NCBI GenBank assembly: GCA_963796455.1
Contig: CAWCLO010000001.1
Span: 576,001 to 640,000 of the forward strand
Direction of reading: 5' to 3'
DNA: 64,000 nt
Source: Candidatus Sulfomarinibacteraceae bacterium
GTDB taxonomy: Bacteria > Acidobacteriota > Thermoanaerobaculia > Thermoanaerobaculales > Sulfomarinibacteraceae
Positions 13,920 to 39,330 of the stretch are shown here, piece after piece; position 1 is the first letter of the stretch; each line of letters starts with the position of its first letter. Below the pieces are notes generated by a model. The model saw nothing but the letters and a program-made list of their open reading frames with translations, had not been told where the DNA came from and did no database searches. A program made the translations under genes and the position numbers.

Positions 13920-15191
13920 GTGATGTCGACACACCATCTGAATGCATCCGATTCGAAGACCACCTCCTATTTGGGCTGGTCTGTGTTGGCCCTCGCCATG
14001 TCAATTCCCCTGTACCGACCGTGGGTCGGCATGGCGGCAGTGCTCATCTTGATCATCTGGATATTCGGTGGTGGCGTCCGCCGACGGCTCCACGATCTGA
14101 CGACCAGCCGGTTGAACCTCGCCGTCCTCGTCTTCATCGGCGTCAACCTGCTGTCCCTCGCGTGGTCCGCCTTTCCAGGAGACGGTTTTCGATATACCAG
14201 AAAATACTGGTACCTCTTGCTGATTCCGGTACTCGCGAGCGCCGTCACCCCCGTTTTTCGTCGCGCCGCCGTCACCGTCTTTGCCTTTGCGGCCGCAGCA
14301 TCCTCAGCGGTTTCGATCGCAATATTTTGTGGTCTTTTCCGTTTTGGCGGCGCCCATCCGGGCAACCCCTCTCCGCTGATGCACCACATCGATTTCAGCC
14401 TCATCCTGGCCCTCGCGGCGCTGTTGATTCTCAACCGCCTGCTCCACGGAGATCTCACCTCTACCCGACGCACCGTGTGGATTGTCCTCTTCTCGGTCGT
14501 AGTTTGTGGCCTGCTCGTGAATATCGGCCGTAGCGGCCACCTCGCGTTCATCGGTGGACTTGCGGCTCTCTTGGGATTCTGGGCCCTCGGCCGCTCCAAA
14601 AGAACCCTTGCGACAGCAGCAGCCGTCCTCCTGATTGGCCTGGCCGCCACGTGGTACGGCATGCCAAGGGTTCGAGATCGAGTGCAGGAGGGCACGGGAC
14701 AGATACGCGCAGCCGTGGTTGACAAACAATTTCAAGGCTCGCTTGGCGGCAGGGTGGCCGCGACGCTCGTGGCGGGAGAAATCATCCGCGCCCACCCCCT
14801 CCTCGGAACCGGTGTCGGGGCCAATATGCCCGAATTCAGACGGATCCTCGAATCTGAATACCCGGAATTCTCATTCGCCATTTCCTGGTATCCGCATTTT
14901 CACAACCAATACACTCAGATCGCCACCGAGCTGGGTCTGCTCGGTCTGTTGTCTCTTGCCTGGATTTTCTTCGAACTGGTGCGCGGCCCGATACATAATC
15001 GGGAGTTCAAAGCTACGGCGATCATTCTGGCGACCGTCTACCTCCTCGGATTCATCGGCGAGCCCTTCCTCCACAAACAGCTCACCCTGGTCGCCTTCGC
15101 CCTGTTTGCCGGGCTGATCGCCGGAGAGCAACTGGATTCCAGCGATCGGGGACAGCGACGGGGAACGGCAGACAGCGTCAGCCAACAGTAG
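13920..15191 (+). CDS. O-antigen ligase (Wzy_C) family membrane protein
   Basis: Multi-TM; GRSGHL, HPLLGTGVG, HFHNQYTQIATELGLLGL. Confidence 0.85.
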   Translation: MMSTHHLNASDSKTTSYLGWSVLALAMSIPLYRPWVGMAAVLILIIWIFGGGVRRRLHDLTTSRLNLAVLVFIGVNLLSLAWSAFPGDGFRYTRKYWYLLLIPVLASAVTPVFRRAAVTVFAFAAAASSAVSIAIFCGLFRFGGAHPGNPSPLMHHIDFSLILALAALLILNRLLHGDLTSTRRTVWIVLFSVVVCGLLVNIGRSGHLAFIGGLAALLGFWALGRSKRTLATAAAVLLIGLAATWYGMPRVRDRVQEGTGQIRAAVVDKQFQGSLGGRVAATLVAGEIIRAHPLLGTGVGANMPEFRRILESEYPEFSFAISWYPHFHNQYTQIATELGLLGLLSLAWIFFELVRGPIHNREFKATAIILATVYLLGFIGEPFLHKQLTLVAFALFAGLIAGEQLDSSDRGQRRGTADSVSQQ

Positions 15192-15232
15192 ACAGGGGCA
15201 GCGATCAGTCTGACTGGTACGGAGACCTGCAA

Positions 15233-15586
15233 TCAAGACTTTGGGTTGAGCAAACGCCAGGTCATGGCACGGACCTGATCGAAGGCCTTCATCGCTTCAC
15301 TGGCTCCATTCCGGCTGATCGCCCCGGTGTGCGCGAGGAGCTCCAAGTGGCTGTCGACCTCTTTCGCCGAGGCGTAGGCGATTCTCCAGTGGTTCGAACG
15401 GTCTCTACCAACTCGGCCGTGCCCTTCTGCCAGGTTCGCAGGGACTGAACTCGCCGACCGGATTACCTGATCGGCAATAGGCTTCAGCGGAGCTGAAACC
15501 CTCATCACGAGCTTGATCGCGATTCCTGCTGCTTCGAGGGCTTTCGAGTGGGCAACGAGGTTGGTGGTCGTGGCGGCGTTGGACAT
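15233..15586 (-). CDS. Four helix bundle protein (23S rRNA IVS protein-like family), 117 aa
   Basis: DQVIRSASSVPANLAEGHGR and IAYASAKEV motifs. GGAGGT RBS before the ATG at 15586. Confidence 0.9.
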   Translation of the reverse strand: MSNAATTTNLVAHSKALEAAGIAIKLVMRVSAPLKPIADQVIRSASSVPANLAEGHGRVGRDRSNHWRIAYASAKEVDSHLELLAHTGAISRNGASEAMKAFDQVRAMTWRLLNPKS

Positions 15587-15724
15587 GGTCACCTCCGGGT
15601 CGTTCATGCCCATACCCACAAGCCGGTGTGGCGGCCGATGTCAAGGATGCCCTGCACCCTGCCTGTCCTTGACATCGGCCGCCCACCGGCTACCCCCTTC
15701 TCTTGAACGACCCGGAGATGGCCA
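15586..15724 (-). promoter_or_regulatory. Three-tier nested hairpin leader covering the RBS of the four-helix-bundle gene
   Basis: Perfect 18-bp IR 15630-15647/15666-15683, 8-bp IR 15621-15628/15684-15691, and ~20-bp IR 15587-15606/15704-15723. Confidence 0.75.
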
Positions 15725-15978
15725 CTTCGTCGCCTGTACTGCTGACCGCTGCCGCTGAACACTGATCACTGTTTGCTGTCCCTGTCGCTGCTAACTGTCG
15801 CTGACGCTGGACACTGTCGCTGCCACTGCAATACGGGCGTGGACGCGAACTCGGACTCGCACGCGGGCACGGGGAAACCGCAAACCGGATATGCCAAAAA
15901 GCAATCCCTAAACCTCGGGTGGTCAGGTGGGCAACTTTATCGACGAATTGCAGGGCAAAAAGCGACGTAAAAAAGGGC

Positions 15979-16866
15979 TCAGTCCGCGCCTTCTTTGTCC
16001 TCACCCTCGCCCTGATCCGCGAGTTCTTTCAAACCCTGCCAGGTCTTCTCGTCCTCGTCGAACTCGGGAAGCGTCGGAGGGACCCCTCGATCATCGTTGA
16101 CCTGCCAGCCCCACAGGATGGCGAATTTCATGTAGGTGCTGTAGGCCTGCAGGAGGCAGAACACAATTCCGAGGGAGCCATCGAGGATCCCGAGTTGAAG
16201 AAAATAGGTTCTGAAGAAACGCCACATCGGTCGAAAGAGGACCTCGAGGGCGCTGGTGCGGACTCCGTCCCGCCAACACTGCGCAGCATTCCAATAACCG
16301 TATTTTGCGAGGCGAAAGGCGTACTCGTCGAAACTCCGATCCACCATGTAATGGTCGATAGCATTCTTCAGGATCGGCGTCTCTCCGGTTGTATGCAGAA
16401 CCGAGTGAACCCGCCGGTTCTCGTAGAAGGCGGTTCCATTGCGAAACAACCGCGCCACCCGATCATGTTGCCAACCGGAAAACCTGATTCGCCGGCCGAG
16501 AATGAAAACGCTCCGGTTCATCATGTACGCATCGTGCTTCGGGCCAGCCAAAAGGATGGATTCGACCTCCTGTCGGAGTTTGGGGGTACACCGTTCGTCC
16601 GAATCGAGAAGGAAGATCCAATCACTCTTCACGTGCTGTAGCGCCCAGTTCTTCTGCGCACCGGCACCGAAGTACCTGCGCTGGAAGAAGCGAACCTTGT
16701 CGTAGCTCTGAGCGATTTCGGGGGTGCGATCCGACGAAAAGGAATCGACCACGATGATCTCGTCGCACCATTCGAGCGACTCGATGCAGTCGGCAATGTT
16801 GTGTTCTTCGTTGAACGAGGTGATGACTCCGCTCACCGCTGGACGTTTCTTTTCATCGCTAGCCAA
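15979..16866 (-). CDS. Glycosyltransferase family 2 (LPS core beta-1,4-glucosyltransferase-like)
   Basis: FNEEHNIADCIESL, VVDSFSSDRT, LLDSDER. Confidence 0.9.
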   Translation of the reverse strand: MASDEKKRPAVSGVITSFNEEHNIADCIESLEWCDEIIVVDSFSSDRTPEIAQSYDKVRFFQRRYFGAGAQKNWALQHVKSDWIFLLDSDERCTPKLRQEVESILLAGPKHDAYMMNRSVFILGRRIRFSGWQHDRVARLFRNGTAFYENRRVHSVLHTTGETPILKNAIDHYMVDRSFDEYAFRLAKYGYWNAAQCWRDGVRTSALEVLFRPMWRFFRTYFLQLGILDGSLGIVFCLLQAYSTYMKFAILWGWQVNDDRGVPPTLPEFDEDEKTWQGLKELADQGEGEDKEGAD

Positions 16867-17038
16867 TGCCTGTGCCTCCGGGGTAAGGAATCCTCACACG
16901 ATCAAGGGATCCGACTCTCGATCCAAGGCCACGACCGGGACGGCTCCACGGCCTGATTCGAGACGGTGGGATCGTAGCACAAAGCAAACATCACCCAAGT
17001 GATGGTGGGGTCTTCGCAGCATTTCGAGTTATCATGGA

Positions 17039-17752
17039 GTGATGGTCGAGAACCGGCAACACGTGCTTGTAGTCGGCGGCAAAGAGGACGGTCTCAATCG
17101 AGTCGCACCCATGCTGCGCAGGGCGGAATTCAGCGTCCACACGGTGGACGAGTCGCCGTTTCTCCTCGATCTCGTGTTGAGTACCGCCTTCGAACTCGTG
17201 GTCGTCAACTATCCAATGGACAACCTGTCGATCGACGATCTCCTCGAGACCGTTCGTGAGGAAGGGTCCGCCTGCCACGGTGCCGGGATTCTCCTCCTCA
17301 CAGACCCGACCATGCTCGACGACGCACAGGCGCTCGTGGATGTGGGCGCAAACCGTGCGATCTGCACCGACTGGAACGAGGCTCGCCTCTGGCAGGCAGT
17401 CGGAGATCTGCTCGATATCGCTCCGAGAATCTTCATGAGGGTGTTGCTTCACGCCGAGGTCGAGGTTCAGACACCGGGAACCAAAACGGTCTTTCAGACT
17501 GTCAACGTGTCGGTCACTGGAGCACTCTTGCAGGGTTCCGAAATGATTGACCCCGGTGCGACCTTCGATTTCCTCTTCCGCCTTCCGGGCGGCGGACTCG
17601 TCGAAGGGACCGCAGAGGCTGTCCGTCAGACAAACACCCTCCGCGAGGGCGTGAACGGAATCGGGACCCGTTTCGTGGGTTTTCGCGGCGACAGCGAGGA
17701 GCGTCTCCTCAGCCACGTCAGACGCCAGGTCTACCTCGGCAACAGGAGATAG
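17039..17752 (+). CDS. Receiver-like domain plus PilZ domain protein
   Basis: N-terminal degenerate REC fold; C-terminal NVSVTGA, AEAVR and GIGTRF PilZ-type motifs. Confidence 0.7.
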   Translation: MMVENRQHVLVVGGKEDGLNRVAPMLRRAEFSVHTVDESPFLLDLVLSTAFELVVVNYPMDNLSIDDLLETVREEGSACHGAGILLLTDPTMLDDAQALVDVGANRAICTDWNEARLWQAVGDLLDIAPRIFMRVLLHAEVEVQTPGTKTVFQTVNVSVTGALLQGSEMIDPGATFDFLFRLPGGGLVEGTAEAVRQTNTLREGVNGIGTRFVGFRGDSEERLLSHVRRQVYLGNRR

Positions 17753-18948
17753 AACCGGCCGTCATTTTTCATCCGGCCGGCTATCGCTGCGGCTTCATCG
17801 CCGGCACCGACAAAGAGATCAACTCTCCCCGGCCCTCGGATCGCACCACCGGTGTCCTGATTCACCGAGAAGCGCGCAAATTCCACCTCGCCCCCATCGT
17901 CGCTGGGCATCGTACCTTCGATCCACGCCATCACCGGTGCCGGAAACAGCCGCCGATCGGTGGCAATGGATCGCCCAGCTGTAACAGGCACGCCATAACA
18001 ACCGAGGGGGCCGTCGGTGGTATCGAGCGGACGGAAGAAGACATAGGACGGATTGTAGGAAAGAACCCTCCGCACCTCTTCCGGGTTCTCTGCGAGGAAG
18101 GTCCGAATCGCCTGCATCGACATCTCTTCACGGCTCACGAGGCCCTCGTCGATCAAGAGCTTTCCGATCGATTTGTAGGGATGTCCGTTCGCGACTGCAA
18201 AACCGGCGCGCTTCCGCGAACCGTCTTCAAAAACCAGGGTTCCAGAGCCCTGGATCTGCAGAAAAAAAAGATCCACAGGATCCGCCACATATCCGAGTAC
18301 CGGCGCGGCGGCCGCGAGACCCTCACCAAAGTCGATTGCCGCACGATCCGGATACGGCACCAGATCATGTCCATCGACCCGGCCTACCAGACTTCGTGAG
18401 GCTGGATCGAGTCCGAAATCGCGCAGGTCGATCTTGACGAGATCGTCGGGGATGCCCCGGACCGGAACCGTGTATCCAGGCTCCTCCTCGAGGCGGGCAT
18501 CGAGCAGCGGTTCGTAATATCCCGTGAAGAGCACTTCGCCTCGCCTATTTCGCCCGACCGATCGCAGGAGGATGAAGTCTTCCTGCAACAGGCGGGTTCG
18601 AAGCGCCGGATCACCTTCGGTTTGCATGATTTCCCGGAATCGACGCACCCCGTCGGCGAGTTGGGCGGCGCTTCGATCCAGGGGCCCGAAGCTGAAGACC
18701 CGTTCGGGAGGGACGCGCTCGAGATAGCTCAGCGAGTGATCGCAGGCCGCCAGCAGGGACTCAACCGGAAGATCGTCTGCCAGGACGGGCCACCGGTTGG
18801 CGGAAACCTCTTTCAAGGGCCGTTTGGAACGAGCCGTAACGGAACTTCCGGTCGAGCAACCCAGCGAAATCACACACAGAGCCACCACGAAGCAGCGGAC
18901 GGAAAACGGCACGCTCAACGGACGAGAACCAGGGACAACCACGGCCAA
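17731..18948 (-). CDS. mltA: Membrane-bound lytic murein transglycosylase A
   Basis: FTGYYEP, FFLQIQGSG, NPSYVFF, QDTGGAIRGPGRVDLFVG; lipoprotein-like SLGC. Confidence 0.9.
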   Translation of the reverse strand: MAVVVPGSRPLSVPFSVRCFVVALCVISLGCSTGSSVTARSKRPLKEVSANRWPVLADDLPVESLLAACDHSLSYLERVPPERVFSFGPLDRSAAQLADGVRRFREIMQTEGDPALRTRLLQEDFILLRSVGRNRRGEVLFTGYYEPLLDARLEEEPGYTVPVRGIPDDLVKIDLRDFGLDPASRSLVGRVDGHDLVPYPDRAAIDFGEGLAAAAPVLGYVADPVDLFFLQIQGSGTLVFEDGSRKRAGFAVANGHPYKSIGKLLIDEGLVSREEMSMQAIRTFLAENPEEVRRVLSYNPSYVFFRPLDTTDGPLGCYGVPVTAGRSIATDRRLFPAPVMAWIEGTMPSDDGGEVEFARFSVNQDTGGAIRGPGRVDLFVGAGDEAAAIAGRMKNDGRFYLLLPR

Positions 18949-20177
18949 TAAGTGATGATCAGAACCGTTACAAAAAGAATAAGGAGGAAGGGCATGGCGG
19001 CCCGGTAGAGCGTCACGATCGGCCGGTCGAAACGATAGCTCGCGATGAAAAGGTTCATCCCGACAGGAGGCGTGCAGTAGCCGATCTGCATGTTGGCGAG
19101 GAAGATCATCCCCAGGTGAATCGGATCAACACCATAACCGGCAGCGATCGGAAGGATCAGGGGAACCACGAGGACGAGGGCTGAGAAAATATCGAGCATC
19201 ATCCCGAGTGCGAGCAGAAAAACATTGAGCAGGATGAGAAAACTCAGTTTCGAGGAGACGTGGGTCGTGACGAACTCGAAAAGCCGGGTCGGCACCTCCT
19301 GGTCGATCATCAGATTTGTCGACGCAAGCGACGCTCCGAGAATGATGAGGATCCCGCCCACCAAAACCATCGAATCACGCATCACGCCCGGGATCCGTTT
19401 GAAGGGAATGTCGCGATAGATCAGGACCTCGACAACAAAAACATAGACCACGGTGACCACAGCGGCCTCGGAGACCGCGAAAAATCCACTGTAAACGCCA
19501 CCTAGAACGATGATTGGAAGCGGGATCTCCCAGGCCGACTCCCTCACCGCGGCGACACTTTCCCGCCAATTGAATCGGTGTCGATTGACCCTGTTTCGAA
19601 CGAAGGTGCCCTCGCGCATGCAATAGAGAGACAGCAGCAACAACATGAACAAACCGGGTAGAATCCCCGCGACAAAAAGATCATCCACCGACTGCTCGGC
19701 AATGATGGCGTAGAGGATCAACGGCAGCGACGGCGCGAAGAGGAGGCCCAGGCTTCCAGAAGTCGTAATCAAACCGAGATTGAACCGTTCGCGATAGCCC
19801 GCCTCGGCGATCGCCGGGTAGAGCAGGGCTCCCATGGCGATGATCGTCACCCCGGACGCACCGGTGAATGCGGTAAAGAGCGCACAGACGAAAAGGGCGA
19901 CAACGGCGAGTCCTCCCGGCATCCATCCGAGGAGGACGTTGGTGACCCGGACCAGCCGTTTCGGGGCCTGGCTTTCGCCGAGCAGGTATCCGGCAAAGGT
20001 GAAGAGCGGGATGGCGATCAGGACCGGAATCTCGGAGACCCGAAAGAACTCCATGGGCACGATCATGAGATCGATGTCGGCCCGCGCAAAACCGATCAAG
20101 GCGCTCGCGGCGATGATCGCAAACAAGGGGGCGCCGAGAATCGCGAGCAGAATCAATGCGATGCCGATGAGGATCAA
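18915..20177 (-). CDS. dctM: TRAP transporter large permease
   Basis: LIAIPLFTFAG, GSLGLLFAPS, TPPVGMNLF. TTG start overlaps the dctQ stop. Confidence 0.9.
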   Translation of the reverse strand: MILIGIALILLAILGAPLFAIIAASALIGFARADIDLMIVPMEFFRVSEIPVLIAIPLFTFAGYLLGESQAPKRLVRVTNVLLGWMPGGLAVVALFVCALFTAFTGASGVTIIAMGALLYPAIAEAGYRERFNLGLITTSGSLGLLFAPSLPLILYAIIAEQSVDDLFVAGILPGLFMLLLLSLYCMREGTFVRNRVNRHRFNWRESVAAVRESAWEIPLPIIVLGGVYSGFFAVSEAAVVTVVYVFVVEVLIYRDIPFKRIPGVMRDSMVLVGGILIILGASLASTNLMIDQEVPTRLFEFVTTHVSSKLSFLILLNVFLLALGMMLDIFSALVLVVPLILPIAAGYGVDPIHLGMIFLANMQIGYCTPPVGMNLFIASYRFDRPIVTLYRAAMPFLLILFVTVLIITYWPWLSLVLVR

Positions 20178-20692
20178 AACAACTCCTCCTCGGCAATGCC
20201 CTGTCTGAGATGTTTGACGGCGTAGAGCAGGTAGCGCAGCGCGATGACCGCAAAACCGACCGGCAGAACCGCCTCGCAGACCCAGACCGGAGCAAACCCG
20301 ATCGACATGCCGCCAGCCGCTCGATCTTCCATCATCAGCCGATAGGCGCTCCACGCAACCACTGAAGACACAACGGCTGTGAAGAGATCCGTCACGACCC
20401 GGAGGCGGGCTTTCCATTGTTCCGGAAGGAACCGCGAGAGCGCATCGACGGAGATCTGTTTGTCATGGCGGGTCGCCACCATCGCACCGATCATTCCAAT
20501 CCACAAAACCGAAACCCGCAGCAGCGGGTCGGCCCACAACAAGGCACCATCGAAAAGATTGCGGAGAATAATCTGTGTCCCGGCCACCACGACCATGGAG
20601 GTCAGGAGCAGCACGAGCAAGGCGTCTTCGAAGACAGCGATCGCCCACAGGAGTCGAGCGACAGACGACTTGGATTCGGTCTCTGTTGTCAC
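20174..20692 (-). CDS. dctQ: TRAP transporter small permease
   Basis: Four TM segments; QIILRN, WADPLLR; lies between dctP and dctM. Confidence 0.88.
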   Translation of the reverse strand: MTTETESKSSVARLLWAIAVFEDALLVLLLTSMVVVAGTQIILRNLFDGALLWADPLLRVSVLWIGMIGAMVATRHDKQISVDALSRFLPEQWKARLRVVTDLFTAVVSSVVAWSAYRLMMEDRAAGGMSIGFAPVWVCEAVLPVGFAVIALRYLLYAVKHLRQGIAEEELF

Positions 20693-21705
20693 TCGTCGGT
20701 GGCCCGTTCCCGAGCACGGTAGGCCCCGAGGATCTCGTCGATCTCGGACAGCACACGCTCGTCATATTTGCGGAAATCCACCAGGATCTTTGTCGCCTCG
20801 GCGGCGATGACGGTCCATTGCGCTCGCGCCTCATCGGTCGGATCGACAAAGGTCACGCCCTGGGCCGTCAACGCGGCGCGGGCTTCCTGATTGTCCACCC
20901 GGGTGCGCTTGTCGAGCCTGGCGTTGGATTCGAGCAGCACTTCACGCATGATCGCCTGATCACCGGGGCTCAGCTTGTCAAAGGACTTTTTGGTGACTGC
21001 AAGGGCTCCATAGACGTAGGTGATCGGCAGGTCTGTGACGTAGGGCGCCTTGGTAAACCACTGCAGCGCGATCGCCCCGACCGGCGGAGCTGCGATGGTA
21101 TCGATCAGACCGGTCTGCAAACCGGTCAGAACATCCGATATCGGAAGTGGAACCGGCGATAATCCGGCCGCCTCGACAATTGCCAGGGAGACGGGATCAC
21201 CCTGTGGAATCCACGCCTTGCGGCCCTTCAGGTCTTCAAAATTTCGCGTCGGTTCGGCCGACATGAGGTAGGTAAACCCGGTTTCGGTCAGCCCGAATGC
21301 GATGTAGCCGGCCTCTTCGAGACCGTCGATCAGATTCTGATCCATCCGTTGACGAACGTGATCCACCTCGTCATATGATTGGAAGAGCAGTGGAATGTTG
21401 TAGACCTCGACCTCCGGATCCGCATCGGCAAGACCACCCGAAAGAAAGACCCCGCCCTGGAGCTGGCCGATTCTCATCTTGCGGATGATCGCCAGATCCG
21501 AGCCCATGGTCCCACCGGGATAAAACCGCAGACTGACCCGACCCTCGGTCCGTTCGTTCAACTCATCGGCCGATCTTTTGAACTCGTTCATCCAGTACGA
21601 ACCGTCCGGCGCCATGGTGGCGATCTTGAAGCGGTGATTCTGTGCTCCGGCCGGGACCGCCGCAATCGTCAGGACGGCAAGAAAGAAGATCATCCTTCGG
21701 TACAT
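20689..21705 (-). CDS. dctP: TRAP transporter substrate-binding protein
   Basis: KIATMAPDGSYW, FYPGGTMG, DVLTGLQTGLID. Confidence 0.9.
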   Translation of the reverse strand: MYRRMIFFLAVLTIAAVPAGAQNHRFKIATMAPDGSYWMNEFKRSADELNERTEGRVSLRFYPGGTMGSDLAIIRKMRIGQLQGGVFLSGGLADADPEVEVYNIPLLFQSYDEVDHVRQRMDQNLIDGLEEAGYIAFGLTETGFTYLMSAEPTRNFEDLKGRKAWIPQGDPVSLAIVEAAGLSPVPLPISDVLTGLQTGLIDTIAAPPVGAIALQWFTKAPYVTDLPITYVYGALAVTKKSFDKLSPGDQAIMREVLLESNARLDKRTRVDNQEARAALTAQGVTFVDPTDEARAQWTVIAAEATKILVDFRKYDERVLSEIDEILGAYRARERATDE

Positions 21706-21706
21706 T

Positions 21707-22588: not shown

Positions 22589-22676
22589 ACTTTACAACTC
22601 ACTGATGAAAATACCGATGGGAATGGCTCGCTCAGTATGAGTTGATTGTACGGTATTTTGCGCTCGGGTGAGGTCT

Positions 22677-23312: not shown

Positions 23313-23352
23313 GGTACTATTATGACAGCATTTGCCGCGAAAGGAGGGTCAT

Positions 23353-26800: not shown

Positions 26801-26819
26801 ATTCAATCCCCAATACAAG

Positions 26820-27590
26820 ATGCTCGTTGCTCGATGCTGGATGCTGGATGCTGGATGCTGGATAAGTTTTGTCCGAGACAGTGTCTCGGACAGCGTTCAG
26901 GGACAGCAACGGCGGCAGCGGCAGCAAACAGTAGTCAGCGGCAGCATTCAGTCATCAGCGACAGCAAACGGCCCTCATATTCTCGGGTTCAATAGCCGCC
27001 AGGTCATCGCACGGACATGATCGAAGGCCTTCATTGCTTCACTGGCTCCGTCCCGGCTGATCGCACCGGCGTGGGCGAGGAGTTCCAAGTGGCTGTCGAC
27101 CTCTTTCGCCGAGGCGTAGGCGATTCTCCAGTGGTTCGACCGGTCTCTACCGACTCGGCCGTGCCCTTCCGCCAAGTTAGCAGGGACAGAACTTGCCGAC
27201 CGGATCACCTGATCGGCTATGGACTTCAGAGGAGCTGGAACCCTCATCACGAGTTTGATAGCGATTCCTGCTGCTTCCAGGGCTTTCGAGTGGGCAACGA
27301 GGTTGGTGTTCGTGGCGGCGTTGGACATGGTCACCTCCGGGTCGTTCATGCCCCATACCCACCAGCCGGTGTGGTGGCCGATGTCAAGGATGCCCCGCAC
27401 CCTGCCTGTCCTTGACATCGGCCGCCCACCGGCTACCCCTTCCTTGGAACGACCCGGAGGTGGCCACTTCGCCGACTGGAATCCTGATCGCTGCCGCTGG
27501 ATACTGACCGCTGGCCCTGTTCGCTGTTGCCTGTCGCTGTCGCTGGACGCTGCCGCTGCAATACGGGCACGGACGCGGACTCGGCGTAAC
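26820..27590 (-). mobile_element. Four-helix-bundle cassette, copy 2 (boundaries approximate)
   Basis: (GATGCTG)n end array, CAGCG-rich flank, gene, hairpin leader 27329-27466, CGCTG-rich flank. Confidence 0.6.
26975..27328 (-). CDS. Four helix bundle protein, 117 aa
   Basis: 8 aa differences from copy 1 by manual count; same RBS and start. Confidence 0.9.
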   Translation of the reverse strand: MSNAATNTNLVAHSKALEAAGIAIKLVMRVPAPLKSIADQVIRSASSVPANLAEGHGRVGRDRSNHWRIAYASAKEVDSHLELLAHAGAISRDGASEAMKAFDHVRAMTWRLLNPRI

Positions 27591-27604
27591 GGCGAACCGG
27601 AAAT

Positions 27605-29166: not shown

Positions 29167-29238
29167 GGTAGGCCTCACAGTAGAATCCCATGTACGATCC
29201 TCGCACGGGGAGCAGGAGAATAACACAAACGAAATGGT

Positions 29239-29409
29239 ATTTCGGATTCGGAATTTCGGATTTCGGATTTCTGAAACGGCATGTTGCAACGGGAACCGGG
29301 CGGCGATGCTGTGGTGCGCCCTTCAGGCGGTCGAAACCGGGCCACTCACATGATTGGACTCCACAAGATAGGCTGTCAAATTCGAAATCCGAAATTCGAA
29401 ATCCGAAAT
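29239..29409. repeat. Inverted pair of heptamer arrays (ATTTCGG)n ... (CGAAATY)n
   Basis: 29239-29271 is complementary to 29378-29409. Confidence 0.85.
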
Positions 29410-30704
29410 CACTTTTTGCCGGCCTGCCAGACGATGTCGCCGCCGACTATGGTCGCCGCCGGCCAGCCCTTGAGGCGCATACCTTCGAATGGTGTATTAC
29501 GAGATTTCGAACGAAATCTGGCCGACTCGACTGTCCGCAGGGCTCGCAAATCGAGGATCGTGACATCCGCCGGCGATCCTTCCTTGAGACTGCCGCCGGG
29601 CAGGTTGTAGGCCTCTGCAGGACCCGTCGACAAAAGGCGAACCAACTGCGTCAGACCGACGACCCGTCCATGCAGCAGGCGATCGATCGCCAAGGGAACC
29701 GTGGTCTCCAGACCCACGATCCCGAATGGTGCATCGGCAAAGTCGAATTCCTTTTCGTCGGCGTGGTGTGGTTCGTGCTTGGATACGATCGCATCCACCG
29801 TTCCATCGTAGATCGCCTGGAGGAGGGCCTCGACCTCGTTCGATCCTCGCAACGGAGGATTGGTCTTCCAGTTTGGATCGTAGTTGGCTCCCGCCACATC
29901 CTCGTCGGTCAGGACAAACTGGTGTGCCGCAACCGCGCAACTCACGGCCACATTCCTTTGTTTACCGACCCGGATCAAATCGAGAGCCGTCGGCGTTGAA
30001 ACGTGGCATATATGGAGGCGCCCCTTGGTGAGCTCCGCCAGCAGAACATCCCGGGCCACCATCACATCCTCGGCCGAGGTCGGCATGCCGCGCAAACCGA
30101 TTCTGGTGGAGACAAGACCCTCGTGCATCGAGCCCGCGTCCGAGAGGTTGAGATCCTCTTCGTGGACCGCGACAGGAATCTCGAAACTCCGCGCATATTC
30201 GAGGGCCCGCCTCGCCAGCAGGGCATTCGATATCGGGTGCGGGCAATCCGACACCGCAACCGCACCGGCCTTGGCCATCTCGCCGATCTCGGCCAGCTCC
30301 TGACCCGCAAGGCCCTTCGAAACCGCACCCACCGGATAAACACGAGCAAGCCCGACCTCGCGGGCCTTGTCCAGGATATAGCCGGTCACCGACGGATCGT
30401 CGTGGACGGGCTCGGTGTCCGGCATCGCACATATTGCGGTGAATCCACCCGCCACCGCCGCCCTGCAGCCGGTTGCGATCGTCTCTTTGTACTCAAAGCC
30501 AGGCTCACGAAGATGGCATTGGAGATCGATGAATCCCGGCGCGACCACGAGGCCCGCGGCGTCCAGGATCTTGGTCCTCGCCGGCGCTTCGACACGCTCC
30601 CCAATCTTCGAGATCTGGCCGTCTTCGATCAGAACATCCATGCCCTGATCGAGACCCTGCGACGGGTCGATGACTCTTCCGTTACGAATCAGAAGCCGCT
30701 TCAC
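29409..30704 (-). CDS. pyrC: Dihydroorotase (or pyrC'-like structural partner of PyrB)
   Basis: [41 protein letters not shown] start overlaps the pyrB end. Confidence 0.9.
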
Positions 30705-32206: not shown

Positions 32207-32271
32207 TGCACGCCTCCTTGGCGCCTGTCTGAATCACATTTCTTCTCCGCACGAGCACGCTGAAACAAGCG

Positions 32272-32297
32272 AAAAAAAAGCTCCCCGAACGGGAAGC
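32272..32297 (-). terminator. Intrinsic terminator in the pyrR leader (candidate attenuator)
   Basis: Minus strand reads GCTTCCC-GTTC-GGGGAGC-T8, about 65 nt upstream of pyrR. The upstream gene is divergent. Confidence 0.65.
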
Positions 32298-32368
32298 GTT
32301 GGTGCGGAGCAGATGTTTTTCGAACTCCCATCTGGGAGATGGTAGCACAACGGAGGCACATCGAGGTT

Positions 32369-32462
32369 TGAGTTCTGAGTTCTGAGTTCTGAGTTGCCGA
32401 ACAGTCTCTCAAGAGCATGGTCGAAGGATGGGATAACTCAAAACTCAACTCTCAAAACTCAG
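32369..32462. repeat. Inverted pair of heptamer arrays (TGAGTTC)n ... (AAACTCA)n
   Basis: 32369-32395 against 32435-32462. Confidence 0.8.
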
Positions 32463-32497
32463 CCTTTCGACCGTCGTTCTGGATATGATGTCGGACG

Positions 32498-33385
32498 GTG
32501 ATTCAGAATAAGACGACCCGCCCGAGCGATCGGCTGATGATCCTCGCCGCAGCCGTGCTGTTTTCGACTGGTGGGGCAGCGGTCAAATTGTGTTCGATGA
32601 CCAACTGGCAGGTCGCGAGTTTCCGGTCGGGAATCGCGGCCGTCGCACTTGCCCTTCTGTTACCTGCCGCAAGGCGAAACTGGACCTGGCGGACCTTTGT
32701 CGTCGGCAGCACCTACGCATTGACGATGATCTGCTTTGTTTTGTCCAATAAGCTCACGACCTCCGCCAATGCCGTCTTCCTGCAAAGCACAGCGCCGTTG
32801 TACATTCTCCTGTTGGGACCATTCCTCCTCAGCGAGCCTGTCAGGCGCCGCCAACTACTTTTTATGGCAGCGCTCACCATCGGCATGTTTTTCATTTTCA
32901 GTGGGGAGCAACAGACTTTTACCACCGCCCCGGACCCGCTTCGAGGCAACATCGTCGGAATCGTGACAGGAATCTGCTGGGCCTTCACGATCATCGGATT
33001 GCGTTGGTTGGCCCGTGGATCCGATCCCGCCTCGCAAAACAACCCTGCCGCGGCCGCAACACTGTCCGGGAATCTGATTGCGTTTCTGATCACTCTACCC
33101 GCAGCACTGCCGGTCGTCTCCAGCACCGCCATTGACTGGGCCGCTGTGAGCTTTCTCGGGATTTTTCAGATCGGTCTGGCTTATGTGTTCATTGTTCACG
33201 GTGTACGTCGGGTCAGCGCCCTCGAGGTCTCGCTGCTGGTATTGCTCGAGCCGGTCCTCAACCCGATCTGGTCGTGGTTGATCCACGGCGAAACGCCGAC
33301 TTCATACTCGCTGGTGGGAGGAGCCTTGATCGTTCTGGCGACGGCCGTCTACACCTGGACCGGCTCGCGACCAGAATCGAATTGA
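32498..33385 (+). CDS. DMT/EamA family transporter
   Basis: About 10 TM segments; ANAVFLQSTAP and LLEPVLNPIW. Confidence 0.9.
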   Translation: MIQNKTTRPSDRLMILAAAVLFSTGGAAVKLCSMTNWQVASFRSGIAAVALALLLPAARRNWTWRTFVVGSTYALTMICFVLSNKLTTSANAVFLQSTAPLYILLLGPFLLSEPVRRRQLLFMAALTIGMFFIFSGEQQTFTTAPDPLRGNIVGIVTGICWAFTIIGLRWLARGSDPASQNNPAAAATLSGNLIAFLITLPAALPVVSSTAIDWAAVSFLGIFQIGLAYVFIVHGVRRVSALEVSLLVLLEPVLNPIWSWLIHGETPTSYSLVGGALIVLATAVYTWTGSRPESN

Positions 33386-33777
33386 CGCTCGCCGTGCGCC
33401 ACGGTGACCGTGGTGTGGAGACCGCCCCGCAGCCGATAGTCAAGCACGATCTCCATCCAACGAGGCTCGCAGCAGGCCACCAGGTCATCCAGGACGCGGT
33501 TGGCGGCATGCTCCTGATAGATCCCCACATTGCGGAAGCTCGTCAGGTAGTACTTGAGCGACTTCAGCTCGATACATACCGCCGACGGCAGATATCGAAT
33601 GCTCAAAGTGCCAAAATCAGGCAGCCCGGAGAATGGGCACACACAGCTCCATTCATCGGTCGATATCTCGACCTCCGCCGCGCGCGGCCGGTATTCGTAT
33701 GGAAAGGTCTCGAGGACCCCGGGAGTCAATTTTTCGACCCCGTCGAATGAAAACGTCCGTCCTTCCGCCTCGACCAT
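33349..33777 (-). CDS. queF: PreQ1 synthase (7-cyano-7-deazaguanine reductase)
   Basis: CPFSGLPDFG, ELKSLKYYL, RGGL. Confidence 0.93.
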   Translation of the reverse strand: MVEAEGRTFSFDGVEKLTPGVLETFPYEYRPRAAEVEISTDEWSCVCPFSGLPDFGTLSIRYLPSAVCIELKSLKYYLTSFRNVGIYQEHAANRVLDDLVACCEPRWMEIVLDYRLRGGLHTTVTVAHGERQFDSGREPVQV

Positions 33778-33850
33778 GGCTCATCCTACAACAGGTCGGA
33801 GCTCGTCAGCGATCGGATACACTGATCCGACAACATCCAAGAGGTGCCCA

Positions 33851-34684
33851 ATGAGCTACGCAAAGAGGTTCCGAGTCAAACCCGGCCAAAAAATCGATCT
33901 TGACGGCTTCGAGGCCAATTGGAAACCCGACGGCATGAAGCGGGTGGATGGAGAGGACGAATTCGTCAACCTGACCGAACGCCTCAGCGAACTCCAGCAC
34001 CTGATGTATGCGGAGGACAAACGATCGCTACTCATCGTCCTCCAGGGTCGCGATGCCGCGGGCAAGGACGGCACCATCCGCCACGTCTTTGGACCGATGA
34101 ACCCGCAGGGCTGCAAGGTGACCAGCTTCAAGGTGCCGTCAAAACTCGAATCTTCCCACGACTTTCTCTGGCGCTGCCACATCGCGGCACCGGCGCGGGG
34201 GCAGGTCGGGATCTTCAATCGTTCCCACTATGAGGACGTGCTGGTCGTCCGGGTTCATGATTTGGTGGAGAAATCGGTATGGTCGAAACGATTCGATCAC
34301 ATCAACAATTTTGAAAGACTGCTCAACGACCAGGGGACGACGGTCCTCAAGTTCTATCTCCACATCGATCGTGAAGAGCAACTCGAACGATTCAAGAAAC
34401 GAATCGACAACCCGAGAAAGAACTGGAAGATCAGCGACGCAGATTATTCAGAACGCCCCTTTTGGGATGAATACACTGCGGCCTTCGAGGACGCCCTCAG
34501 CAAATGCAGCACCCGTGAGGCGCCATGGTTCGTGATCCCAGGCAATCGTAAATGGGCCCGCAATCTGGTCATAGCCAACATCGTCGCTGAAACGATGGAG
34601 GGCTTCGGGATGCAGTACCCCGAACCCGAGGTCGACATGGAAGCGATCAAGCGGATGTATCACGAGGCGGAGGACGCAGGCTGA
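33851..34684 (+). CDS. ppk2: Polyphosphate kinase 2 family protein
   Basis: LQGRDAAGKDG, FNRSHYEDVL, APWFVIPGNRKW. GAGGTG RBS. Confidence 0.92.
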   Translation: MSYAKRFRVKPGQKIDLDGFEANWKPDGMKRVDGEDEFVNLTERLSELQHLMYAEDKRSLLIVLQGRDAAGKDGTIRHVFGPMNPQGCKVTSFKVPSKLESSHDFLWRCHIAAPARGQVGIFNRSHYEDVLVVRVHDLVEKSVWSKRFDHINNFERLLNDQGTTVLKFYLHIDREEQLERFKKRIDNPRKNWKISDADYSERPFWDEYTAAFEDALSKCSTREAPWFVIPGNRKWARNLVIANIVAETMEGFGMQYPEPEVDMEAIKRMYHEAEDAG

Positions 34685-34689
34685 TTCTC

Positions 34690-35545
34690 GTTGCAGGATG
34701 CAGGATGCAGGATCACTCGTGTCCAAGACAGAGTCCCAGACAGCAATCAGGGACGGCGACAGCGATCAGCGTCGGCGACAGGGAACAGCTATCAGTGTTC
34801 AGCGTCAGCGAACAGGAGTCAGCGTCACGTTTGACTGGTATGGAGCCCTGAAATCAAGACTTTGGGTTGAGTAAACGCCATGTCATGGCACGGACCTCAT
34901 CGAAGGCCTTCATCGCTTCACGGGCTCCGTTCGCGCTGATTGCGCTGGCGTGGGCGAGGAGCTTCAAGTGGCTGTCAACCTCCTTCGCGGAGGCGTAGGC
35001 GATTCTCCAGTGGTTCGACCGATCTCTTCCGATCCGGCCGTGCCCTTCCGCCAGATTCGCAGGGACCGAACTTGCCGACCGGATCGCCTGATCGGCTATG
35101 GACTTCAGAGGAGCTGGAACCCTCATCACGAGTTTGATCGCGATTCCTGCTGCTTCCAGAGCTTTCGAGAGGGCAACAAGGTTGGTGTTCGTGGCGGCTG
35201 AGGACATGGTCACCTCCGGGTCGTTCATGCCCATTCCCACAAGCCGGTGTGGTGGCCGATGTCAAGGATGCCCTGCACCCTGCCTGTCCTTGACATCGGC
35301 CGCCCACCGGCTACCCCTTCCTTGGAACGACCCGGAGGTGGCCACTTCGCCGCCTGTACTCCTGACCGCTGCCGCTGCTCTCCGTCGCTAAACACTGACC
35401 GCTGTCCCTGTTCGCTGTTGCCTGTCGCTGACGCTGGACACTGTTGCTGACGCTGTCCCTGACCGCTGTCCGAGACACCGTTTTGGACAGCGGTGATCCA
35501 GCATCCAGCATCTGGTATCTGGTATCTGGTATCTGGTATCTGCCG
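34690..35545 (-). mobile_element. Four-helix-bundle cassette, copy 3, with the clearest long imperfect inverted flanks
   Basis: ~34697-34825 is the imperfect reverse complement of ~35360-35512; (TCTGGTA)n array at the outer end. Confidence 0.65.
34854..35207 (-). CDS. Four helix bundle protein, 117 aa
   Basis: 13 aa differences from copy 1 by manual count; same leader. Confidence 0.9.
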   Translation of the reverse strand: MSSAATNTNLVALSKALEAAGIAIKLVMRVPAPLKSIADQAIRSASSVPANLAEGHGRIGRDRSNHWRIAYASAKEVDSHLKLLAHASAISANGAREAMKAFDEVRAMTWRLLNPKS

Positions 35546-35621
35546 AAATCCTCCTTGGCATTCTCGCTCGCCGGACCCATATTCTTCACATCCGCACATT
35601 TCAGCGAAAAGGGGGGCACTC

Positions 35622-36008
35622 ATGCATTGGTGTTACTCATGCCCGCACTGCGACGCCTCGCTCAACCCCGATGAAACGATCGTTCTGATCGGCGAATGCG
35701 GTCCCCACCGGATCCTGATGGGCTTCCACCCCGAACCGGGGAACTACCGCGGCTATCTGCCGCCGGAGTTCCACCTGCAGGAAGGTTCGATGTGGGACTT
35801 TTTCTGTCCGGTTTGTTCTCGGAGCCTGGTCTCCGAGGCCGCCCCCGAGCTCTGTGCCCTCGACCTGGACACTCAAGGCGTCCGCCACCGGCTTTTCTTT
35901 TCCCGCACTGCCGGCGAAAGGGCGACCTTCGTGATCACGGCCGAAGGCATCACGAGCCACGGAGAGCACGCAGAACAACATTCTCTGGAAATGCTGGATC
36001 TTGTATAG
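35622..36008 (+). CDS. Hypothetical protein with two CxxC motifs
   Basis: CPHC and CPVC; purine-rich RBS before the ATG at 35622. Confidence 0.7.
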   Translation: MHWCYSCPHCDASLNPDETIVLIGECGPHRILMGFHPEPGNYRGYLPPEFHLQEGSMWDFFCPVCSRSLVSEAAPELCALDLDTQGVRHRLFFSRTAGERATFVITAEGITSHGEHAEQHSLEMLDLV

Positions 36009-36269
36009 AAGGACCAGTCGTTTGCAGAGCGACAGAGCTTGAAGACTTCCGCACTCCCTTTCTCCCATTCTGGAACGGGATCGGGATCGGATAGCGTGGA
36101 CTGACCATCCCCTTTCTCCCTTTCTCCCTTTCTCCCTTTCAGGAACGATATCCGCGACAGCCGTTCGATAGCGATGGCGCGGATACTGAGCCGTGCGCTG
36201 CCCCTCTGCTCCTCCGCCCCTCTGCGCCACCCCTCGTCACCCCGAAGCGCTGCGTGTAGGATAGAACAC

Positions 36270-37268
36270 GTGGACTTCAAGAAACGCCAGGTGATCCTGA
36301 GATCGATCGGGCTCCTCGTCGCGGTGCTTGGCGCTGGGACCCTGGGTTATATGCTCATTGAAGGCCAGGGCATTATGCCCGCCTTCTATATGACCACTAT
36401 AACGGTCACCACCATTGGGTTTCGCGAGGCCTTTCCGCTTTCTCCGGCCGGCCAGGCATTCACGATCGTGCTCGCCTTTGGCGGCGTCGGGGTCATCCTG
36501 ATGATCGCTACCGATTTCGCCCGGGCAATGCTCGACACCGATATCAGCCGCATGATCGGTCTGCGAAAGGATCTGACAATGTTGAAGAAGCTCAGCCGAC
36601 ATATTGTCGTGTGCGGTCACGGCCGCATGGGCAATGCCGTCGTCGAGGTCCTGCGCGAACGGGGCGTTGATTTCGCCGTGGTTGAACTCGACGCCGAGCG
36701 TTGCCGGGAACTCGAAGAACACCATATTCCGGTGGTCCGTGGGGACGCGACCAAGGAAGATGTGCTCGAAGCCGCTGGAGTCGCCAGAGCCAATACTCTG
36801 ATCGCCTGCCTCGCCGACGACGCCAACAACGTGTATTCGATTCTGCTCGCCCGACAGCTCAAACCCGGGATCACGGTCATCGCGCGAGCGGTCGAGGACG
36901 GCGCCGAAGAACGGCTCAAACTCGCGGGCGCCGATCGGGTGCTCAATCCTTACCGGGTCGGCGGAATCAGGCTCGCCATCACGGCCCTCAAACCAACCGT
37001 CGCCGACTTCGTCGAGGCCTCCCTCTTCGGGTCATCGATGGAGCTCGAACTGGCCGAGGTGGTGGTTCACCCTTCCAGCGATCTTGCCGGCAAAACCCTT
37101 GCCGGAGCTGAAGTCCGGCAGCGTTTCGGCATCATCGTCGTCGCTCTCAAACGAGGCGACAAAAGCACCTTCAACCCGGAGGCTCACGAGGTGATCGAGG
37201 CCGGTGATGTTCTGGTCGCGTTGGGGCCGATTCACGCTCTCGAAAGAATCGAGCAGGCAACGCAATAG
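36270..37268 (+). CDS. Potassium channel protein with RCK (TrkA-N/TrkA-C) domains
   Basis: Pore motif TVTTIGF, VCGHGRMG, GDATKEDVL. Confidence 0.9.
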   Translation: MDFKKRQVILRSIGLLVAVLGAGTLGYMLIEGQGIMPAFYMTTITVTTIGFREAFPLSPAGQAFTIVLAFGGVGVILMIATDFARAMLDTDISRMIGLRKDLTMLKKLSRHIVVCGHGRMGNAVVEVLRERGVDFAVVELDAERCRELEEHHIPVVRGDATKEDVLEAAGVARANTLIACLADDANNVYSILLARQLKPGITVIARAVEDGAEERLKLAGADRVLNPYRVGGIRLAITALKPTVADFVEASLFGSSMELELAEVVVHPSSDLAGKTLAGAEVRQRFGIIVVALKRGDKSTFNPEAHEVIEAGDVLVALGPIHALERIEQATQ

Positions 37269-37448
37269 GACGAGAGGCTATGTGGCTATGGCCGGCTGCT
37301 TCGCAGCCTGGCTGTGAGGCTTATGATTGTTTTTTCTAGGCGCGACCACACAGCCTCATAGCCCCATAGCCTTATTGCCTTATGGCATAGAGATCAGCGT
37401 GTCTCGCGGGGGAACCCTGGTGCGACATCGCCGTTGAAGCCAGCGATC

Positions 37449-38669
37449 CTAAACCGAGGCGGCCGCCACCTGTGACAGTCTCCCCGGATAGGCCGCAACG
37501 GCGGCATCGAGAATCTTCATGGCTCGGCCCAGGGTGTTGGAGTCATACATGAAGGCGATCCGAACTTCGTCGATGCCGAGTCCTTCAGTCACATAAAAAC
37601 CCTCGCCAGGCGCCAGACACACCGTTTCCCCTTCGAGCGAGAAATTGCGCAGCAGATAGACGGCAAAATCTTCGCAGCTGTCAATCGGCAACCGCGCCAT
37701 CGAATAGAAGGACCCCTCCGTGCGGTGAGGACTCACGCCTTCAATGGCCCCAAGGCCCTTATAGACCGCATCGCGACGACGCTGGTACTCACCACAAAGC
37801 TCTTCGGAATAGGCGCGGCCGTTTTTTAACATCGGCACCACCATCAGCTGCTCCGCCGTCGGCACCGAGAGCCGTGCCTGACAAAAACGAAGGGTTACGT
37901 CGAGGATCTCGCGGTTGTGGGTTGCCAGGCAACCGATACGCACGCCACAGGCGTTGAACCGTTTGGACACGCTGTCAACGACGATGATTTGCTGCGCCAG
38001 TTCCTCAAATTGTGTGAAGCTGCGCACGTCGCCGCCATCAAAGACGAATTCCCGGTAGACCTCATCACAGATCACAAAGAGATCATTTTCCAACGCGACC
38101 TGCGCCACCGCCTCGAGTTCCTCCGCGGTATAGACCGTCCCGGTGGGGTTCGAAGGGTTACACAAAAGGATGGCCTTGGTCCTCGGCGTGACGCTGGCGC
38201 GCAGTCGGTCGATGGAATGAAAGTGATAGCCTTCCTCCACCCGCAACGTGATCGGGACCATCGAGACATCGGCCTGGGCGGCAAAGCTCAGATAATTCGT
38301 GTAGCACGGCTCGAAAACCAGGACCTCGCCGCCACCACCTGCCACCACCGAGAGGACAAAGGTGATCGCCTCGCTGGCGCCCGCCGTGACCAGGATTTCG
38401 TCCGGTGCATAGGCGATGTCCCAGCTCTCAAAAAACTCGCTCCACCCCTCGCGGGCTTCCAGGAGTCCATCGCTCGGTGCATAGGCAAGCGTTGCCAGGG
38501 AGAGCCCATGGAGTTCGGCAATCATCTCGGGAGGCGTCGGCATATCGGGCTGACCGATATTGAGATAGATGACCTTCGTACCGCGGGCTTCGGCCTGGAG
38601 CGCGTGCGGCGCCAGTTTTCGGATCGGTGAAGCCTGCAATTTGGAACTCTTGGCTGAAAGCTTGGGCAT
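37449..38669 (-). CDS. PLP-dependent aminotransferase class I/II (aspartate aminotransferase-like)
   Basis: LNIGQPD, CNPSNPTG, DEVYREF, SVSKRFNACGVRIG. Confidence 0.92.
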   Translation of the reverse strand: MPKLSAKSSKLQASPIRKLAPHALQAEARGTKVIYLNIGQPDMPTPPEMIAELHGLSLATLAYAPSDGLLEAREGWSEFFESWDIAYAPDEILVTAGASEAITFVLSVVAGGGGEVLVFEPCYTNYLSFAAQADVSMVPITLRVEEGYHFHSIDRLRASVTPRTKAILLCNPSNPTGTVYTAEELEAVAQVALENDLFVICDEVYREFVFDGGDVRSFTQFEELAQQIIVVDSVSKRFNACGVRIGCLATHNREILDVTLRFCQARLSVPTAEQLMVVPMLKNGRAYSEELCGEYQRRRDAVYKGLGAIEGVSPHRTEGSFYSMARLPIDSCEDFAVYLLRNFSLEGETVCLAPGEGFYVTEGLGIDEVRIAFMYDSNTLGRAMKILDAAVAAYPGRLSQVAAASV

Positions 38670-38869
38670 GGATACCTCCCGGTCGGCACCGCGGTTCCCC
38701 GGATTGTAGCGTATCGGATCAGCCACCTACCCGCCCGTACCCGTATCGGGAAAGGGGGAAAGGGCGCAGGGGAGAAAGGGAGAACGCCCGCAACACGATA
38801 CTCGATGTTGGATGCTCGAACCGCCACATGGCAGAGGGGAAGAGGGGCGGAGGAGCAGAGGGGCTCGAA

Positions 38870-39330
38870 TCGAGATACGAGATGCTGGATACTGGATCAC
38901 TCTTGTCCAGGTGGGAGTTTCGGACAGCGATCAGGGACAGCGACGGGGAACGGCAGAAAGCGTCAGCAAACAGGAGTCAGCGGCAGCGACCAGCGGCCGG
39001 GGCAGCGACAGCGCCAGCCAACACCAATCACTCCGTCGGGTTCAACAGCCGCCAGGTCATGGCACGGACCTGATCGAAGGCCCTCATCGCTTCACTGGCT
39101 CCGTTCCGGCTGATCGCCCCGGCGTGGCGGCCGATGTCAAGGATGCCCTGCACCCTGCCTGCCCTTGACATCGGCCGCCCACCGGCTACCCATTTCTGTA
39201 GAACGATCCGGAGGTGGCCACGCCGTCACTGCGCCTGATCGCTGGCCCTGAACACTGATTGCTGCCCCCTGTCCCTGTTCGCTGTCCTCTGTCGCTGCCG
39301 CCGCAATTCGGGCACCGACGCGGACTCGGG
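38870..39330 (-). pseudogene. Four-helix-bundle cassette, copy 4, internally deleted (only the gene's 3' end remains, fused to the leader hairpin)
   Basis: ~39028-39125 encodes ...GAISRNGASEAMRAFDQVRAMTWRLLNPTE* and joins directly to GGCGGCCGATGTCAAGGA... Confidence 0.88.

Follow-up and report, generated by a model that had tools for sequence, protein, structure and literature searches.

The question raised by a 64,000-nucleotide (nt) stretch of the genome of a Candidatus Sulfomarinibacteraceae bacterium (NCBI GenBank assembly GCA_963796455.1, contig CAWCLO010000001.1, positions 576,001 to 640,000; named “the window” in the current work) is how a gene for a 117-amino-acid (aa) four-helix-bundle protein, accompanied by a structured leader and repeat-rich flanks, came to be present there in four copies, and why it has been kept. 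An earlier interpretation made from the letters alone (the sequence-only reading) had proposed an uncharacterised self-spreading or trans-mobilised element, whose protein recognises its own folded RNA or single-stranded DNA (ssDNA). The analysis presented here indicates that the repeats are very probably damaged copies of a transposase-less mobile cassette, delimited by ends of the IS4 insertion sequence (IS) type and associated with 9-bp target duplications, and suggests, from the retention of the gene even in copies without the ends needed to jump, an undiscovered function of the protein.

The genome from which the window was taken (named G000; metagenome-assembled, 5.02 Mb in 10 contigs, 90.5% complete) contains 99 loci matching the protein, 58 of them with an intact 117-aa open reading frame (ORF) and 41 being partial or divergent. 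A genome-wide check of copy number and ends thus revealed a family far larger than the four copies reported, and the minus-strand orientation ascribed to these holds within the window but not across the genome, where the intact ORFs occupy both strands. The intact copies share a mean nucleotide identity of 89%, and one out of 1653 pairs reaches at least 98%. A further 72 loci of G000 are gene-less relatives, in which the start of the leader is kept and the inner hairpin and the gene are replaced by a repetitive extragenic palindromic (REP) sequence. Protein matches were obtained in 19 of 24 other genomes of the genus (0-54 per genome), and a sister-family genome yielded 46.

The full element of ≈850 bp begins, on the gene strand, with the A end and ≈100 nt that are conserved; hexamer repeats and an array of CAG units (6-7 nt) then lead up to the leader and gene, after which an array of CTG units and the B end complete the element. 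The A end (CACTGCTGTCCAAAACAG) and the B end (CACTCTTGTCCAAGACAG) form an imperfect inverted repeat, and the element reaches ≈200 bp further than the bounds given by the sequence-only reading, to its true terminal inverted repeats. In G000, 98 A and 177 B ends were recovered, forming 80 inward-facing pairs, 75 of which are A-B (341-895 bp) and 5 B-B. The CAGCG/CGCTG-rich flanks noted earlier are real, corresponding to the CAG-unit arrays (6-7 nt) upstream and, on the downstream side, to those of CTG units, but they are not copy-specific inverted repeats, because the upstream arm of a copy matches its own downstream arm (score of 32.6) no better than that of another copy (33.0; shuffled sequences 10.3).

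The flanks of the 75 A-B pairs agree at exactly 9 bp, with an identity of 0.77 vs 0.51 for flanks of different elements; the duplication is exact in 21/75 pairs and contains at most one mismatch in 35/75 (9.9% expected). Besides 9 bp, agreement rises only at 2 and 16 bp, which are in the same register of a 7-base period, and at the 24 sites located outside arrays the 9-bp identity is 0.67 vs 0.23-0.25 for lengths of 7, 8, 10 and 11. The preferred target is AT-N5-AT, mostly within heptamer arrays, 29 of 56 such arrays touching an end. An origin of the arrays as excision footprints was rejected, since they are also present at element-free orthologous sites in two relatives (G006 and G008), and the heptamer arrays are therefore read as targets.

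Paired gene-less elements (n=24) retain 7.2/9 duplication matches vs 6.7/9 in full ones (n=28), and two gene-less copies of 433 bp, which score 0.98 alike, each have a different perfect duplication. Furthermore, the genome G021 contains 48 exact IS4-type ends, mostly in 387-bp pairs, together with only 3 protein matches. As judged from these sequences, movement does not require the four-helix-bundle protein in cis. The idea that the protein spreads the element by recognising its own RNA or ssDNA is not supported, given the IS4 ends, the well-duplicated gene-less copies, the ends of G021 and the lack of any reverse transcriptase (RT) match in G000. What survives of the earlier proposal is an element that is mobile, without its own enzyme, and that fits mobilisation in trans (ends, duplications, empty sites); an uncharacterised kind of mobility is not supported.

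IS4 enzymes move elements by cut-and-paste, and an IS4 element once present, or unassembled, would have excised and reinserted the cassette in trans; from the ends and duplications, mobility as an IS4-type cassette moved in trans is regarded as highly probable. A scan of the collection with the A end returned 118 stretches, the following results being those from the 79 loci listed. Among these, the same ends bound 10 elements of 1344-1418 bp, five of which have a perfect 9-bp duplication; a YREK motif occurs in all eight translated transposases, and DUF4372 and DDE_Tnp_1 domains in all six that were scanned. The cassette and autonomous IS4 elements of other phyla have identical inverted ends. 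Provisionally, the size, ends and repeat length of the autonomous elements appear to fit the IS4Sa subgroup, which PMC2266710 describes by ends of the form CA......T, a length of 1150-1750 bp and an 8-10 bp repeat. A cognate IS4 transposase with matching ends (locus L146) was found in one of 25 genomes of the genus. The single DDE_Tnp_1 match of G000 was considered as a mobiliser and discarded, having different inverted ends. IS4-type ends were also observed at L030, L043, L080, L094, L097 and L099 (Poribacteria, Planctomycetota and other records), three of these loci bounding elements of 254-356 bp and some adjoining heptamer arrays.

Within the window, the three intact genes and the deleted copy are located where they had been reported, the proteins of copies 2 and 3 differing from that of copy 1 by 8 and 13 aa, and the ≈140-nt nested hairpin leader proved to be real. 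The features are as follows:

15140..15232, minus strand: copy 1, downstream CTG-unit array (outer IS4-type end lost)
15233..15586, minus strand: copy 1, four-helix-bundle gene, 117 aa (ORF and profile match)
15585..15725, minus strand: copy 1, leader, with the outer stem over the GGAGG site and start codon, and GTAG before the inner stem (15667-15693)
15726..15872, minus strand: copy 1, upstream CAG-unit array, junction and hexamer repeats
15873..15945, minus strand: copy 1, remnant, IS4-derived end region (terminal repeat itself not found)
26818..26863, no strand assigned: heptamer target array (GATGCTG)n, adjoining copy 2 and directly after tRNA-Cys
26864..27603, minus strand: copy 2, with degenerate B end (26864), CTG array, gene, leader (27327-27467), CAG array and truncated A end
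26975..27328, minus strand: copy 2, four-helix-bundle gene, 117 aa
34714..35495, minus strand: copy 3, with terminal repeats at both ends, each followed by B-type inner sequence, and heptamer arrays on both sides
34854..35207, minus strand: copy 3, four-helix-bundle gene, 117 aa (leader at 35206-35345)
38898..39330, minus strand: copy 4, with B end (38898), gene end, partial leader (to 39221), CAG array and truncated A end

The TIGR02436 cut-off is passed by all three intact genes and that of PF05635 by copy 1, whose protein would measure 124 aa if an alternative in-frame ATG at 15607 were used; an O-antigen ligase ORF terminates at 15191, within the CTG array of this copy. A normal A+B pair is present in none of the four copies: copy 1 is without both ends, copies 2 and 4 are without the A end, and copy 3 has B-type sequence at both ends. 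The 9-mers flanking copy 3 are mirror images rather than a direct duplication, and this copy is likely a recombinant. Copy 4 retains only bases 255-354 of the ORF (39028-39127), the inner hairpin through base 255 being deleted; the gene remnant and the leader now meet at a short word common to both, near 39124-39130. In agreement with the sequence-only reading, no transposase, integrase or RT family match was obtained among the 54 window ORFs scanned; at the Rfam gathering score only tRNAs were detected in the window, and all four copies are intergenic, none lying in an rRNA gene. In nine loci of G000 (contig C1: 368309, 391087, 470247, 661747, 999981 and 1137326; C3: 14025 and 98092; C10: 438251) the same segment, from the inner hairpin as far as codon 57, has been lost across a short shared word; recurrent deletion, conversion or transposition could each account for this.

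Gene order around the window sites is kept in five relatives, and the gene is absent in 19 of the 20 site-genome pairs (sites 2-4 in 5/5 relatives and site 1 in 4/5), these empty-site relatives being 70-80% alike and the exact pre-insertion alleles not being recovered. In the 20th pair, G006 has an opposite-orientation element with both ends at site 1. The vertical conservation that would have spoken against mobility was therefore not observed. The comparison of related loci and flanks thus revealed both empty sites and target duplications, and the repeats combine terminal inverted repeats, a target duplication, a passenger instead of a transposase and empty orthologous sites.

Retention of the gene was evaluated from the ratio of nonsynonymous to synonymous substitution rates (dN/dS), which is 0.16 among intact copies and 0.06 in residues 10-80. 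Private alleles comprise 39 synonymous and 66 missense changes in intact copies, and 11 and 62, plus 3 stops, in the 41 broken segments (p=0.0013), at an equal private synonymous rate of 0.60 per 100 codons; missense changes are depleted at conserved residues (p=7e-5), and the contrast is significant in codons 57-114 (p=0.004). The 26 intact copies without one or both ends show 24 synonymous to 36 missense changes (p=0.0015 vs broken copies), carry the most private synonymous changes (0.92 per copy) and have few missense changes at conserved residues, 0.38 against 2.14. Because this depletion extends to end-lacking copies, selection acts on copies in place and not just on those that jump; the copies also recombine, but conversion would be expected to remove both classes of change, synonymous and missense, equally. 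A contrast of singleton with shared alleles, taken as selection only during propagation, was dropped, as it is confounded by homoplasy and end-lacking copies are also depleted. Purifying selection on dozens of redundant copies, including those without ends, is not expected of passive cargo.

The outer stem of the leader pairs with the GGAGG site and the start codon, and would hide the ribosome site in read-through transcripts, keeping expression low; a start hidden in read-through RNA is known from IS10 and IS50. Across 57 copies the stems are nearly invariant and the loops variable. Of the 44 pairs predicted, 18 show paired changes when 23 leaders from 9 genomes are compared, a count that relatedness of sequences and self-correction of palindromes can also produce; in the inner helix alone, 6/14 pairs are changed on both sides. 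The 5’ arm of the leader decays in gene-less copies, and folding favors neither strand. The inner stem is preceded by (G/A)TAG in all lineages seen, and on the other strand this region reads TTGACA-N16-18-TA in 47/58 copies of G000, 12/12 of G014 and 12/13 of G006, which may represent either a REP-type signal or a weak outward promoter. When compared with Rfam at E-values up to 10, the leader gave only generic hairpin matches far below the cut-off. A search of reads returned no run holding half of the stretch, and an RNA run gave contigs of relatives only. A second type of leader, in which a different insert replaces the inner hairpin within the same outer stem, is present at L219, L220, L227 and L230-L233 (G006) and at L007 (G017), the loop therefore acting as an exchangeable slot.

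The same gene, leader and arrays were also found between ends of a second kind, GG(C/T)TCATCCGGAA, located inside AACGTT-containing arrays and matching the ends of autonomous ISL3 elements. Such cassettes occur in G014, G008, G005, G020, G016, G017 and G019, and across 29 paired loci the 8-bp flank identity is 0.84 vs 0.71, 10 of them being exact (8.6% expected). The ISL3 end pattern is present in 13/25 genomes and not in G000, G006 and G021, the three that are rich in IS4-type ends; neither an ISL3 transposase nor ISL3-type cassette ends were found in G000, and two G006 loci flagged with both kinds of ends were discarded as chance matches. In one case (L240:948-3186, from G017), an AACGTT array contains an autonomous ISL3 element, which is immediately adjacent to a four-helix-bundle module bearing a single ISL3 end. 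Many near-identical, recent copies in G008 (L205-L211) are without the sense-strand TTGACA arm of the inner hairpin, and this arm is therefore not needed for ISL3-type spread.

A gene tree was constructed from 61 genes (10 of the 58 from G000 and at most 8 from each other genome), in which the 18 IS4-borne genes form one clade (100/99) within a branch (96/94) shared with ISL3-borne genes, other ISL3-borne genes falling outside that branch; the tree was rooted at its midpoint, which falls on the G040 branch, and the bootstrap had not converged. The nesting of the IS4 clade among ISL3-borne genes suggests a switch of carrier from ISL3 to IS4, which these sequences make fairly likely. The gene and leader would then be an older module residing on ISL3-ended cassettes in the genus, the IS4 ends having been gained in one lineage. 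A switch between two shells, each aimed at its own short-repeat array, ties hitherto unexplained intergenic heptamer arrays to IS targeting.

The predicted model of the protein comprises four helices (predicted local distance difference test score, pLDDT, of 94) and supports the fold assignment of the sequence-only reading, with template-modelling (TM) scores of 0.81-0.83 to the intervening-sequence-type proteins 2GSC and 2RLD, whose crystal entries have five chains each, and of 0.76-0.80 to Avd; its isoelectric point is 10.3. A nucleic-acid-binding function exerted by a pool, in which missense subunits are harmful, is proposed only tentatively. Every intact copy would contribute subunits to a common pool of basic, Avd-like oligomers binding foldback RNA or ssDNA, where a missense subunit would do harm and therefore be purged, while deleted or gene-less copies would be tolerated. 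A more extensive version, which we consider unlikely, is that gene and leader constitute a hitchhiker module without a mobility enzyme, colonising non-autonomous shells of two unrelated IS families, moving between these by recombination, and kept functional everywhere because the target of the Avd-like protein is foldback RNA or ssDNA, whether from the module itself or from the short-repeat arrays with which these genomes are filled. If true, it would provide the 23S intervening-sequence protein family with a function and a route of spread.

A number of observations weigh against the cassette reading and the selection ascribed to its gene. Two or more mismatches are present in the duplication of 40/75 pairs, some having no recognisable duplication, and five of the 10 autonomous elements are without a perfect one. 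The cognate IS4 transposase was not found in G000, at 90.5% completeness, nor in G006 or G021, the other two end-rich genomes, and therefore mobilisation is inferred from sequence only. In G040, all 29 of 29 loci are without either kind of end, the genome having 46 protein matches, and therefore not every expansion can be attributed to transposase ends. Copy 2 gave no consensus promoter, and there is no bias towards co-orientation with the upstream gene (31/58 vs 44/72). The missense contrast is not significant in codons 1-56 (p=0.59, with few broken copies), and some genomes of the genus have no matches, or only faint ones, to the subfamily, so that any benefit to the host is not essential.

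Recombination might do much of the spreading, empty IS4-type shells being transposed and the gene-leader module subsequently being copied between shells, including between IS4 and ISL3 ones, by gene conversion via shared repeat arrays. The copies are mosaic, with four-gamete incompatibility of 68-89% (which homoplasy can inflate) and an r2 that drops from 0.13 to 0.03 over 50 nt; multi-base markers at opposite ends of the gene are unlinked, neighbouring ones being linked, and B-B and inverted-core elements exist. This explanation is nevertheless doubtful, as whole gene-bearing elements 0.98-0.99 alike occur at different target sites, the gene is at least 99% alike in 45/120 pairs of G008 and 27/190 pairs of G006, and element lengths are uniform, all of which is expected from transposition as a unit. 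Mosaic copies in a metagenome-assembled genome might also point to an assembly artefact, a possibility rendered negligible by the divergence between copies, by site-specific duplications and by the parallel families in 19/24 genomes of the genus. A further alternative places mobility in the inner module, which would be REPIN-like and depend on a resident HUH (RAYT) transposase, the IS ends being secondary shells. GTAG-family REPs have a hairpin preceded by GTAG, and the inner hairpin is preceded by (G/A)TAG in all lineages seen; the search of G000 for RT, RAYT and HUH enzymes gave six Y1 transposase matches and no RT, the gene-less subfamily holds the REP flanking two of these, and the expansion in G040 occurred without IS ends. 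On the other hand, none of the six Y1 genes had the inner hairpin next to it, 80 loose hairpin matches outside elements look like chance, and the outer boundaries carry DDE-type duplications, making such a unit decidedly unlikely.

The protein could instead act in cis at each locus, e.g. binding or processing the foldback transcript of its own gene and thereby protecting neighbouring genes from the insertion, like an rRNA intervening sequence; selection on end-lacking copies, the near-invariance and paired changes of the stems and decay of the 5’ arm in gene-less copies are in line with this. It is, however, improbable, as both repeat arrays are still present in the ≈72 gene-less and in many deleted copies that persist, folding shows no sense-strand preference, and 27/58 intact copies are not co-oriented with the upstream gene. 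A self-spreading RNA-protein element using an RT, to which the Avd-like fold would lend itself (Avd being the pentameric partner of the DGR RT; 10.1101/2023.10.23.563531), is already largely refuted and very improbable. G000, within its completeness, gave no RT family match; RTs occur in 11/25 genomes without tracking copy number (none in G000, with 97 matches, or in G004, with 43, and three in G001, with 1); changes among distinct alleles are not in excess at adenines (A at 75/83 sites, C at 112/113 and G at 95/104); and the elements have IS-type ends and duplications. The transposase-less cassette with IS4-type ends is therefore retained as the preferred interpretation, and mobility and function are both testable, because a vehicle with defined ends, a candidate transposase from the same genus and natural gene-less and broken controls are at hand.

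Other repeats were observed alongside this family. REP palindromes at window positions 39375-39426 and 44813-44864 are of the type that flanks two resident Y1 (RAYT-like) genes and fills the gene-less subfamily. Other families of 6-10-nt tandem arrays occupy intergenic spaces, often as mirror-image pairs, at 10124-10228, 29232-29416, 36110-36228, 38750-38864, 40990-41047, 42756-42816, 44255-44337, 45065-45149 and 54844-54883; the same units bracket, as mirror-image short arrays and without IS ends, four unrelated single-copy genes of the protein family in G000. Multi-kb segments of G000 are duplicated (C2:1-3059 and C10:770619-773674; C2:5473-6797 and C10:776087-777411), possibly by assembly overlap, and a further dispersed repeat family comprises nine segments of at least 350 bp, including C4:886989-887964 and C1:2061-2800. 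Elsewhere in the window, DUF3373, multiheme cytochromes and an MtrB/PioB-like porin fragment (47953-54588) represent a likely extracellular electron-transfer locus, and 58171-62934 encodes a type III polyketide synthase, an AMP-binding enzyme, a carrier-like ORF and an FAD oxidoreductase.

No account of this cassette was found in the literature searched, which left out bioRxiv supplements and journals behind subscription; the cassette is neither an rRNA intervening sequence nor a diversity-generating retroelement (DGR). With 23S rRNA intervening sequences, such as that encoding Coxiella S23p (PMC4990558), it shares the protein family within a foldback structure and a patchy distribution, but it is located outside rRNA, intergenic and multicopy; that source treats what the protein family does and how it spreads as questions of long standing, and lists a transposition remnant and ORF-driven mobility of intervening sequences as unproven hypotheses. 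Avd (PDB 4DWL, 8UB7) is similar in fold and basic character, whereas identity is 6-10% and no RT, template or variable repeat was found here. The GTAG-preceded leader hairpin, and the replacement of the gene by the REP of a resident RAYT in the gene-less subfamily, recall REPINs, from which the cassette differs by outer boundaries that are DDE-type ends with 9-bp duplications. At both ends, the first 17-18 bases are the same in the cassette and in the autonomous IS4 elements at L044, L045, L051, L106, L107 and L146, which also share its 9-bp duplication; in the cassette, the transposase is replaced by a cargo gene antisense to the would-be transposase direction. The mobile insertion cassette MIC231, of the IS231 subgroup of IS4 (PMC3913671 and PMC2266710), likewise has IS4-family inverted ends around a passenger, no transposase, a target duplication and mobilisation in trans, the last being probable in the present case. 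The present ends, however, fit IS4Sa (CA......T, 8-10 bp) rather than IS231, and unlike MIC231 the cassette reaches well over 100 copies per genome, strongly prefers heptamer arrays, and carries a cargo of unassigned function that has a conserved structured leader and is borne on ISL3 ends as well.

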